Part shown: positions 1,703 through 2,404 of the stretch, piece after piece
Layout: every line of letters starts with the position of its first letter
How positions within the stretch are numbered: position 1 is the stretch's first letter
Virus record (IMG/VR): IMGVR_UViG_2671180695_000012
From: a virus
Taxonomy: Duplodnaviria > Heunggongvirae > Uroviricota > Caudoviricetes
Length of the DNA stretch: 5,816 nucleotides
Strand: one strand, 5' to 3'
Notes under the pieces: model-generated
What the model was told of the DNA's origin: nothing
Databases searched by the model: none
What the model saw: the letters and a program-made list of their open reading frames with translations, nothing else
Translations under genes and position numbers: made by a program

Positions 1703-1703
1703 A

Positions 1704-1877
1704 TCACCACCAACGGATTGCCCAGACCAGAACAGCGACCGCCACAAGGCGAATTGCAAAGGCCGTTGCCCGAATAAAATCAGCACTCATCTGTTTAAAT
1801 AAATTGTTGTGTATGCAACCAGTGCAGTACAAATAATCCATGCAACTGGCGTCAGTATATGTCTGATGCCCCGGCAT
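1704..1877 (-). CDS. possible small hydrophobic ORF abutting the Rz start (57 aa from ATG 1877; 45 aa from ATG 1841; 28 aa from ATG 1790)
   Basis: The frame ends ...FIRATAFAIRLVAVAVLVWAIRWW at a TGA one nucleotide before the Rz ATG. The C-terminal segment is a hydrophobic helix. None of the three candidate starts has a recognisable Shine-Dalgarno. It is below the length cut-off of the supplied ORF track. Confidence 0.2.
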   Translation of the reverse strand: MPGHQTYTDASCMDYLYCTGCIHNNLFKQMSADFIRATAFAIRLVAVAVLVWAIRWW

Positions 1878-2100
1878 ACCGCGATGATTTTTGCGGCATC
1901 GTCAGCACCCTGCGAAGTTGTTTCTGCTTTTATCATCAGTTGCCATGTCCCTCATGACCCCCATCACCACTCACGATTTCAGAGCAACAATCAATTTTGC
2001 CAGCCCATACAGCATCGGAGACACGGCGATGCCAACCGCCACCCACTTAATGGCAAAAGCCACCGCCCGGATAAGGCAGAGATTCGCCGTATTTTCTGTC

Positions 2101-2205
2101 TTATCTACAAACATATGCTATCGCTGCAACCGCAAAACCAATTGCCCCGATCATTGCCGATAATGCAAGAATAATTCCGGCAATATTTGCTGCTTTAGGT
2201 GTCAT
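2101..2205 (-). CDS. candidate small membrane peptide (34 aa, single predicted TM helix)
   Basis: ATG at 2205 is preceded by AGGGTG about 4 nt upstream. The product is MTPKAANIAGIILALSAMIGAIGFAVAAIAYVCR, with small-xxx-small motifs. Perfect TTGACA (2275-2280) and TATAAT (2256-2261) hexamers lie upstream on the minus strand, but only 13 bp apart. It is not in the ORF track because it is under 60 aa. Confidence 0.3.
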   Translation of the reverse strand: MTPKAANIAGIILALSAMIGAIGFAVAAIAYVCR

Positions 2206-2285
2206 ACTGCACCCTATACTCAGAAAGGTTTTATTGTTATCCTTTACGTGCATGAATTATATCCATGTCTGATTTGTCAAAATGC

Positions 2286-2325
2286 AACCCCGGACTGTTC
2301 CCCCAGCCGGGGTTTTACTTTTATT
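2286..2325 (+). terminator. strong GC hairpin with a T-rich tail; intrinsic terminator on the plus strand, possibly bidirectional
   Basis: Stem AACCCCGG (2286-2293) pairs with CCGGGGTT (2307-2314), extendable by CTG/CAG inner pairs, and is followed by TTTTACTTTTATT on the plus strand. On the minus strand the same hairpin is followed by the weaker GCAUUUUG. Confidence 0.45.
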
Positions 2326-2404
2326 CACTTACCTTTTGCCAGTTTGCAGGATTTCGTGTTATCCGCTCGCGGGAGCACACGCCATTTTTCAGCAAAATAT
2401 TCTG

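Follow-up and report, generated by a model that had tools for sequence, protein, structure and literature searches.

A promoterless array of four small hydrophobic-protein genes in the R-to-Rz interval of a phage-21-type lambdoid prophage

The 5,816-nucleotide (nt) stretch analysed here, referred to as the window throughout, belongs to a Caudoviricetes virus (IMG/VR record IMGVR_UViG_2671180695_000012) and covers the start of the late genes of a phage-21-type lambdoid prophage, with its genes on the minus strand. Our subject is the interval between its endolysin gene R and its spanin gene Rz, which holds four small open reading frames (ORFs), hereafter the mini-genes orfA to orfD or A to D. 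With regard to cassette organisation, the interval can be set against phage 21 and the K-12 prophage Qin, whose SRRzRz1 cassette is the one found on its flanks: an S21-type pinholin, YdfR, a signal-arrest-release (SAR) lysozyme and Rz/Rz1. In Qin, however, R and Rz overlap by 4 nt, whereas here 702 nt with four extra genes lie between them.

Extra membrane-protein genes have been described in comparable places. The lysis module of phage P2 runs in the order Y, K, lysA (antiholin), lysB and lysC, with a membrane-protein gene between endolysin and spanin (PMC3091744). The resemblance lies in a non-essential membrane-protein gene that is likewise placed behind the endolysin and ahead of the Rz-like spanin and is co-transcribed with the lysis genes. 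LysA is nevertheless one protein with four predicted transmembrane domains, whereas the interval encodes four single-helix peptides of 28-50 residues; no sequence similarity was detected, the mini-gene families also occur outside lysis cassettes, and an effect of theirs on lysis timing would be conjectural. The gp15 moron of HK97 is a small inner-membrane superinfection-exclusion protein (YebO-like) encoded by extra DNA between essential late (tail) genes that is absent from close relatives, a moron in the sense of Juhala and Hendrix being an autonomous promoter-plus-terminator unit (PMC3594210). Here the common ground is extra DNA for a small membrane protein in a lambdoid late operon, and families A and C do occur in comparable tail-operon slots. 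Gene 15, however, is a single gene that brings along a promoter and a terminator and is active in the prophage, whereas the mini-genes form tandem arrays of mosaic paralogs with no promoter found and a hairpin upstream, and the two share no homology.

T4 RI, P1 LydB and Mu releasin gp25 are small late phage membrane proteins that adjust the behaviour of holins or SAR endolysins. Their likeness to the mini-genes is one of kind only (compare PMC9239132, PMC11413866): they are single genes with periplasmic or soluble domains, whereas the mini-gene peptides comprise little beyond one helix, and no homology was found. Having no homology to either, no promoter of its own and no downstream terminator, the insert belongs neither to the P2 LysA type nor to the morons of the HK97 gp15 kind. 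The original prediction, made from the letters of the window, had called it a moron-type insertion; of this, the extra DNA relative to relatives holds up, and the autonomous unit is not supported, with the hairpin upstream of the genes and orfD running straight into Rz.

The endolysin-to-spanin interval as an insertion

The features of the interval and its boundaries are as follows.

2405-2938, minus strand: SAR endolysin R, a 21-type lysozyme of 177 residues (Pfam Phage_lysozyme 6e-25; phrog_7 endolysin; RefSeq lysozyme); left boundary of the insertion
2322-2404, minus strand: non-coding post-endolysin linker, common to all insertion-carrying cassettes, including those of Shiga toxin 2 (Stx2) phages
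2279-2321, no strand assigned: hairpin with the shape of a bidirectional intrinsic terminator (A-tract, GC stem, T-tract), inverted repeat I2, leading the mini-gene array
2256-2280, minus strand: hexamers TTGACA (2280-2275) and TATAAT (2261-2256), both perfect, with a spacer of 13 nt
2101-2253, minus strand: orfA, 50 residues (34 from an ATG at 2205), with a single Gly/Ala-rich transmembrane helix IAGIILALSAMIGAIGFAVAAIAYV; phrog_12997 at 6e-7
1971-2114, minus strand: orfB, 47 residues, core AFAIKWVAVGIAVSPMLYGLAKLIVALKS; phrog_1115 at 4e-19; RefSeq WP_000496062
1787-1936, minus strand: orfC, 49 residues; head and juxtamembrane helix conserved (GADxAAKIIAVCRGIRHILTPVAW), transmembrane tail behind them variable; no PHROG match
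1704-1790, minus strand: orfD, 28 residues; phrog_4493 at 2e-6; RefSeq WP_085950722
1235-1702, minus strand: Rz i-spanin, 155 residues (Pfam Phage_lysis 3e-49; phrog_13); right boundary of the insertion
1297-1482, minus strand: Rz1 o-spanin, embedded in Rz, with the lipobox LVVSAC visible in its translation

On the minus strand, 702 nt without a large gene extend from the R stop (2405) to the Rz ATG (1702), in agreement with the roughly 700 bp of the original prediction. The interval is an insertion relative to Qin and to 21-type cassettes, because R abuts Rz both in K-12 Qin, where rrrQ and rzpQ overlap by 4 nt, and in four IMG/VR relatives of the same R type (-4 nt in L049, L050, L083 and L085); the suspected indel is thereby borne out. 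The Rz allele of the abutting cassettes has a GTG start and a different N-terminus; that of the window starts with ATG. Among the IMG/VR loci that we fetched, 80 with the Rz protein and 80 more with an orfB profile, the R-to-Rz gaps of cassettes with the same R type fall into classes of -4, 297, 438, 478-491, 604, 642, 701-703, 1413-1424 and 1855 nt. Co-oriented mini-ORFs of the same kind are found in every non-zero class, and the three longest gaps (1413-1855 nt) contain in addition a large gene or duplicated lysis-gene sequence. All inserted classes have in common the linker of about 80 nt after R and the hairpin. The linker (interval positions 618-702) matches PA28, P27 and other Shiga toxin (Stx) phages at 88-89%, it is the part through which 933W-like Stx2 phages were matched, and its sequence also follows the R stop in L004, L077, L109 and L182. 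The GC content is 0.40-0.43 over 2100-2400 and 0.46-0.52 over the remainder of the interval, against 0.49-0.58 in the flanks, and the whole interval is present in identical form in 31 of 5426 complete E. coli genomes.

The original prediction had also argued against a decayed lysis gene, and we agree with it: homologous prophages carry the same small ORFs in the interval and never one long gene. A decayed antirepressor-like (ant) or methyltransferase gene was likewise considered and rejected, since a tblastn search with both of these slot genes from other phages gave no match in the window. Such genes do occur elsewhere at this site. In PhiR5_1 and PA28 the R-to-Rz slot holds ant, and in L108 (IMG/VR) it holds a 311-residue DNA methyltransferase-like ORF behind a B-Y pair of mini-genes (for family Y see below). 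Because genes of both kinds have been inserted there, we regard the R-to-Rz junction as a general cargo site.

Coding status, protein anatomy and mosaicism

Are the small ORFs genes? The original prediction had recognised two short hydrophobic ORFs on the minus strand; hydrophobic ORFs are indeed present, but their number is four. All are oriented like the lysis genes, in the order R stop, linker, hairpin, A, B, C, D, Rz, and they are tightly packed: the orfB start overlaps the orfA end by 14 nt, a spacer of 34 nt separates orfB from orfC, the orfC stop and the orfD start overlap in ATGA, and the orfD stop is 1 nt from the Rz ATG, with no hairpin between them. Pairing of the orfC Shine-Dalgarno site with the anti-Shine-Dalgarno sequence amounts to -6.1 kcal/mol, and the ribosome-binding site of Rz is GGTGGTGA; the sites of orfA, orfB and orfD are weak in this window. 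The overlaps suggest that translation is coupled from A to B and from C to D. In O157:H7, B and Y have strong Shine-Dalgarno sites, with GGGAG directly ahead of B. Hypothetical proteins are already annotated in RefSeq for orfD and orfB, and for orfA in part of the genomes (WP_001197231 in the sibling prophage L002).

Conservation of the small ORFs had been named as a check on the original prediction, and it speaks for coding. Ratios of nonsynonymous to synonymous variation (pN/pS; Nei-Gojobori, all six frames, distinct nucleotide alleles from loci L001-L181) were lowest in the sense frames, at 0.16 for A, 0.21 for B (27 alleles), 0.29 for C and 0.44 for D; with alleles that are few and non-independent, these values are indications rather than tests of purifying selection on the diverged alleles of A to D. 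Variable sites at codon positions 1, 2 and 3 number 6, 6 and 22 in A, 16, 11 and 27 in B, and 26, 19 and 44 in C, and the amino-acid alignments agree with this picture. In most of the other frames the ratios are higher and stop codons occur; the antisense frame whose wobble positions coincide with those of the sense frame is the exception, with a ratio of 0.28-0.74. Because the families are conserved elsewhere and vary in this codon-position pattern, we take A to D to be beyond chance.

The same comparison bears on the opposite strand, where GTG- or TTG-initiated ORFs had been reported and are present:

1809-2174, plus strand: GTG start, 121 residues
1891-2163, plus strand: TTG start, 90 residues
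2248-2457, plus strand: GTG start, 69 residues

Judged from the alleles, these are antisense shadows of the hydrophobic minus-strand genes. It is hardly conceivable that a long plus-strand ORF (1809-2174 or 1891-2163) is the real gene instead, or that the interval is a large lysis gene that has been frameshifted. The antisense frame over the orfB core would speak for such a gene, being open in 27 of 27 alleles with a pN/pS of 0.40; that low ratio is nevertheless the shadow expected from wobble positions shared with the sense frame, in which the ratio is lower still (0.21). All antisense frames over C are stopped in most or all alleles, as are all but one over A, and the remaining A frame (open in 5 of 6 alleles) has a ratio of 0.28 compared with 0.16 in sense. 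Moreover, the plus-strand ORFs start with GTG or TTG, they show no similarity to the large genes found at the same slot elsewhere, and relatives never have one long gene. The orfB core illustrates that genes rich in hydrophobic codons can cast long, conserved-looking shadow ORFs.

In each product, A to D, a hydrophobic stretch comes after a short polar head. The best 17-residue hydropathy windows (1.87-2.46) are comparable to the transmembrane domains of S21, the SAR endolysin R and Rz, and AlphaFold2 models orfB as a single helix over residues 3-46 (predicted local distance difference test, pLDDT, 83) and orfC as a single helix over residues 8-48 (pLDDT 80.5). Going by a juxtamembrane motif, I[R/I]A[V/T]xxxI[K/R]x[V/I], which reads IRAVAFAIKWV in B, IIAVCRGIRHI in C and IRATAFAIRLV in D, these three are paralogs. 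Conservation in family C is higher in the head and the juxtamembrane region than in the membrane tail. B and D match PHROGs 1115, 3246 and 4493 and A matches 12997, all of them of unknown function, and C matches none; the sole match to a PHROG of the lysis category is that of orfA to phrog_526 (holin) at E = 0.037. None of the four has a lipobox or a periplasm-spanning domain beyond one helix, which sets them apart from spanins.

The position of orfD is less secure. Its DNA is akin to that of orfB (repeat D1, 1738-1777 against 2035-2074, 70%), and because L183 carries a full-length gene with a D head on a B body, orfD may be the 5' part of a B-type gene, either a paralog or a remnant. This raises the possibility, which we consider improbable, that some or all of the ORFs and orfD in particular are neutral passengers, that is, recombination scars or selfish filler travelling with the hairpin linker. 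With only 28 residues, three arginines within its hydrophobic stretch, a pN/pS of only 0.44, two antisense frames likewise without stops, and the appearance of a B-type gene whose 5' part has been fused to the junction next to Rz, orfD would fit this description, and broken variants of the mini-genes exist (P0115, P0117, P0083, P0086). It is difficult to reconcile with the third-position-biased variation and low pN/pS of A, B and C across E. coli, Salmonella and Citrobacter, with the strong Shine-Dalgarno sites before B and Y in O157, and with the occurrence of B and D pieces in 1812 of 5426 complete E. coli genomes.

How widely are the families distributed? Homologs make up 88 clusters for B, 29 for C (E. 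coli and Salmonella) and 5 for A (Citrobacter and E. coli); they are confined to Escherichia, Salmonella and Citrobacter, and all are unnamed or hypothetical. The mini-genes are thus already known as hypothetical proteins of databases and as PHROGs of unknown function. Among the 5426 complete E. coli genomes, the 1812 with pieces of the interval carry mainly the B core and D, and C and A are found in 86 and 36. A search of 1.84 billion representative proteins with the B-family profile returned 13 matches, all short relatives, and therefore does not link the family to a known one. No match of A or C to GenBank phages was obtained by tblastn, possibly owing to its low-complexity filter, and scans of genome contigs with B and C profiles gave no matches or spurious ones of 15 residues.

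Three further mini-gene families were found, X (MISQLPNWKFLLVWSIPFLWVVSQLIVAIKG), Y (MSDKLITLAKILCVIVGISFSLMLVALFLS...) and Z (MMAEKLSTWKFILIWLVFVIMASGYFIGQIRWW). The arrays observed comprise Z, B-D, B-Y, X-Y, X-Y-B-D, A-B-C-D (this window), B-Y-B-D, ant with X-Y-B-D, and B-Y with the methyltransferase, and heads and bodies are exchanged as well: the B body is joined to a C head in P0029 and to a D head in P0033, and P0109 combines a Y head with a C body. O157:H7 SS52 has the order R, hairpin, B, Y, Rz; the Stx2 phage PA28 has R, ant, Y, Rz; and in Salmonella the order is holin_2_3, lysozyme, B, Rz, with a holin and a lysozyme that differ from those of the window. The nearest upstream ORF of a B-family gene is an endolysin in 76 of 80 IMG/VR loci (65 R21-type lysozymes, 8 GH108 and 3 M15 peptidases, kinds that are mutually unrelated), and in two more of the 80 the contig starts shortly ahead of Rz. 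Cassettes of the GH108 and M15 kinds gave no match to the Rz of the window; behind their mini-genes stands, in place of Rz/Rz1, the gene of a small lipoprotein of unknown function. This lipoprotein (51-60 residues, lipobox LVGC, phrog_7528; L183 2318-2473, L184 2174-2329, and L201-L211) is a candidate for the outer-membrane step.

Hairpin, expression and possible role

The strong hairpin of the original prediction is real: the sequence 2279-2321 folds at -22.3 kcal/mol (z = -3.06 relative to shuffles), and a hairpin with A-tract, GC stem and T-tract stands ahead of the arrays in every class and context, including slots outside lysis cassettes. The stems differ in sequence but remain paired (this window, CCCCGGCTG/CAGTCCGGGG; O157, CCCCGTTTG/CAAACGGGG; Citrobacter, GCCCCGAACTG/CAGTCGGGGC), with compensatory double changes in 5 of 12 consensus pairs in a rough alignment. 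The hairpin is located upstream of orfA and not downstream of the genes; only in L172 do hairpins flank an A gene on both sides. An integron-like cassette array was considered and rejected, there being one hairpin per array and none between genes.

The promoter-like hexamers that had been pointed out also exist, but the TTGACA/TATAAT pair is probably not a working sigma-70 promoter, because the 13-nt spacer between the two at 2256-2280 is too short. A scan for the sigma-70 consensus, and for this consensus only, with spacers of 16-18 nt found no such site on either strand of 1500-2700, a consensus scan found none in the homologous region of O157, and TATAAT is not conserved, reading GAGATAAT in L002 and L100. 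In L171, L172 and L182 the distance from the hairpin to the first start codon is 36-45 nt, and we therefore see no room for a promoter and a leader; the mini-genes would thus be reached only by the terminator-resistant, Q-modified late transcription. Because the T-tail of the hairpin is better on the plus strand, which is antisense to the genes, the hairpin may mainly stop antisense transcripts.

Small hydrophobic peptides of 28-50 residues and a hairpin with its better T-tail on the antisense strand also bring to mind type I toxins, membrane-depolarising peptides held in check by a plus-strand antisense RNA. We consider this very improbable here. The scan for Rfam families over the whole window at E <= 1 returned tRNAs and noise only and no match in the interval, so that from the predicted 'small-protein or RNA cargo' the small hydrophobic proteins remain. 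No promoter-like site was found on either strand, the genes form translationally chained arrays inside an operon rather than stand-alone toxin/antitoxin loci, and a genuine Hok/Gef locus, unrelated in sequence, is located elsewhere in a related prophage.

How might the array act? We tentatively favour the view that an accessory cassette without a promoter has been inserted between R and Rz and that its most likely business is a non-essential tuning of the membrane step of lysis. We envision a scenario whereby the hairpin comes first and is followed by A, B, C and D, each of which would form one long alpha-helix with a polar head, a juxtamembrane part and a transmembrane segment. Transcription would occur only within the late pR' transcript, with Q-modified polymerase reading through the hairpin, and translation would be chained, from A to B by the 14-nt overlap and from C to D by ATGA, and initiation at Rz would follow the D stop at a distance of 1 nt. 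The peptides would then be made late together with the lysis proteins and enter the inner membrane simultaneously with the pinholin, the SAR endolysin and Rz, where helix-helix contacts might tune the membrane step, for example the time of holin triggering or the energisation of the membrane. In position and logic this would be analogous to P2 LysA.

The small inner-membrane proteins that phages make late are, as a class, mostly lysis proteins. We favour lysis tuning because of this, because B adheres to endolysin genes and because P2 lysA provides a precedent; that the mini-gene products are accessory modulators of lysis or of the membrane is, as a statement about their role, a guess that we hold with somewhat more reserve.

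A number of observations weigh against this view. B, with head and body unchanged, accompanies three mutually unrelated holin/endolysin sets and therefore does not co-vary with a particular holin; canonical cassettes work without mini-genes, which are therefore dispensable; and unrelated cargo (ant, a DNA methyltransferase) occupies the same slot. Genes of the A, C and X/Z type are also found behind a tail fibre or tailspike gene and ahead of a DUF1353 "tail assembly chaperone", A, C and X/Z-like arrays lie between the 237-residue and 115-residue baseplate genes of Mu-like tail operons, and relatives of B, like families A and C, occur outside lysis cassettes. Searches of A to D in Pfam, NCBIfam, PADLOC and PDB returned nothing significant (best PDB E-value 0.76 and above), and no homology to holin, antiholin or spanin families was found. 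The Shine-Dalgarno sites of A, B and D are weak, as described above, and the pN/pS alleles have the limits already given. A literature search by topic, accession and peptide string found no paper that names or describes the mini-genes and no expression or phenotype data; a report on BSPM4 ORF52 (PMC11657625) that came into consideration is unrelated to them. The arrays in Mu-like operons (L171 3001-3150; L213-L227 at about 2400-3050) also include a further type, MFYAVLIVIGGFAVAKSLPGIAEIIKVLNG.

Several of these observations would suit another role. The mini-gene products may be exclusion or host-modifying inner-membrane proteins in the manner of HK97 gp15. As such they would keep other phages from injecting their genomes or change a membrane protein of the host, and that their genes lie in a lysis cassette would be incidental, the junction being a general cargo slot. 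The same families indeed occupy tail-operon slots, including slots between tail genes, as does HK97 gene 15 (PMC3594210); the R-to-Rz slot takes ant and methyltransferase cargo too; variation in presence and the mosaicism of heads and bodies (P0029, P0033, P0109) fit genes in an arms race; and several paralogs lie one behind the other. Yet no promoter is at hand from which a repressed prophage could express the genes, the hairpin precedes them rather than follows them, and B adjoins an endolysin gene in 76 of 80 loci. No Pfam family, YebO/gp15 included, matched any of A to D at E <= 0.1, and PADLOC gave no match either. We regard an exclusion function as the main rival, though a rather unlikely one, and retain lysis tuning as the preferred reading.

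Neighbouring genes and wider meaning

The remaining genes of the window are given in their minus-strand order.

Before Q, first in order, minus strand: a NinG-like ORF and RusA
4274-5095, minus strand: Q antiterminator
3821-4130, minus strand: four tRNA genes, Gly-TCC, Thr-TGT, Lys-TTT and Met-CAT (ARAGORN), between Q and the holin
3313-3528, minus strand: S21-type pinholin
2994-3308, minus strand: YdfR/DUF1327
851-1213, minus strand: KilA-N/ORF11CD3 fragment, a GTG-start ORF of 120 residues that matches the C-terminal part only of antirepressor-like proteins
Last in order, after the KilA-N/ORF11CD3 fragment, minus strand: DUF1441 gene

The KilA-N/ORF11CD3 ORF downstream of Rz is probably a truncated gene. 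For 3821-4130, ARAGORN reports four tRNA genes and Rfam three. Two further terminator-shaped hairpins were seen by eye on the minus strand, one at about 4168-4195, in a tR'-like position just downstream of Q and under a weak Rfam match to Trp_leader, and one at about 3597-3618, shortly before the holin gene. Where Stx phages have stx, from the Q region to the holin, the cargo differs among sibling prophages that share this lysis cassette: of L002 (NZ_AP045177; 4777-5568) and L001 (NZ_CP061101; 5578-6384), one has the gene of an 'enterotoxin A family protein' and the other has TolA C-terminal-domain genes.

From a broader perspective, the mini-genes could constitute an undescribed class of modular, promoterless 'late-operon peptides': single-helix inner-membrane proteins with shuffled heads and bodies whose hairpin-led cassettes would spread, in lambdoid phages of enterobacteria, to any junction within a late operon, be it behind the endolysin, behind the tail fibre or among the baseplate genes. 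Their time of action would be the last minutes of infection, for example in setting the lysis clock or in closing the inner membrane to the DNA of competing phages, and combinatorial arrays (A-B-C-D, X-Y-B-D, B-Y) would give each phage its own setting. This generalisation is speculative, and we put it forward with considerable doubt.

The lambdoid lysis cassette (S, R, Rz, Rz1) is usually regarded as fully understood, and the mini-genes sit inside it, annotated as hypothetical only. Their pieces are present in about one third of complete E. coli genomes, including O157:H7 prophages, and in 933W-like Stx2 phages, and they offer a compact natural example of tiny membrane-protein genes that evolve by shuffling of heads and helix bodies. 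If the mini-genes adjust the timing of lysis or late-stage exclusion, they would affect the burst size of the phage, and in Stx phages the timing of toxin release could shift as well.

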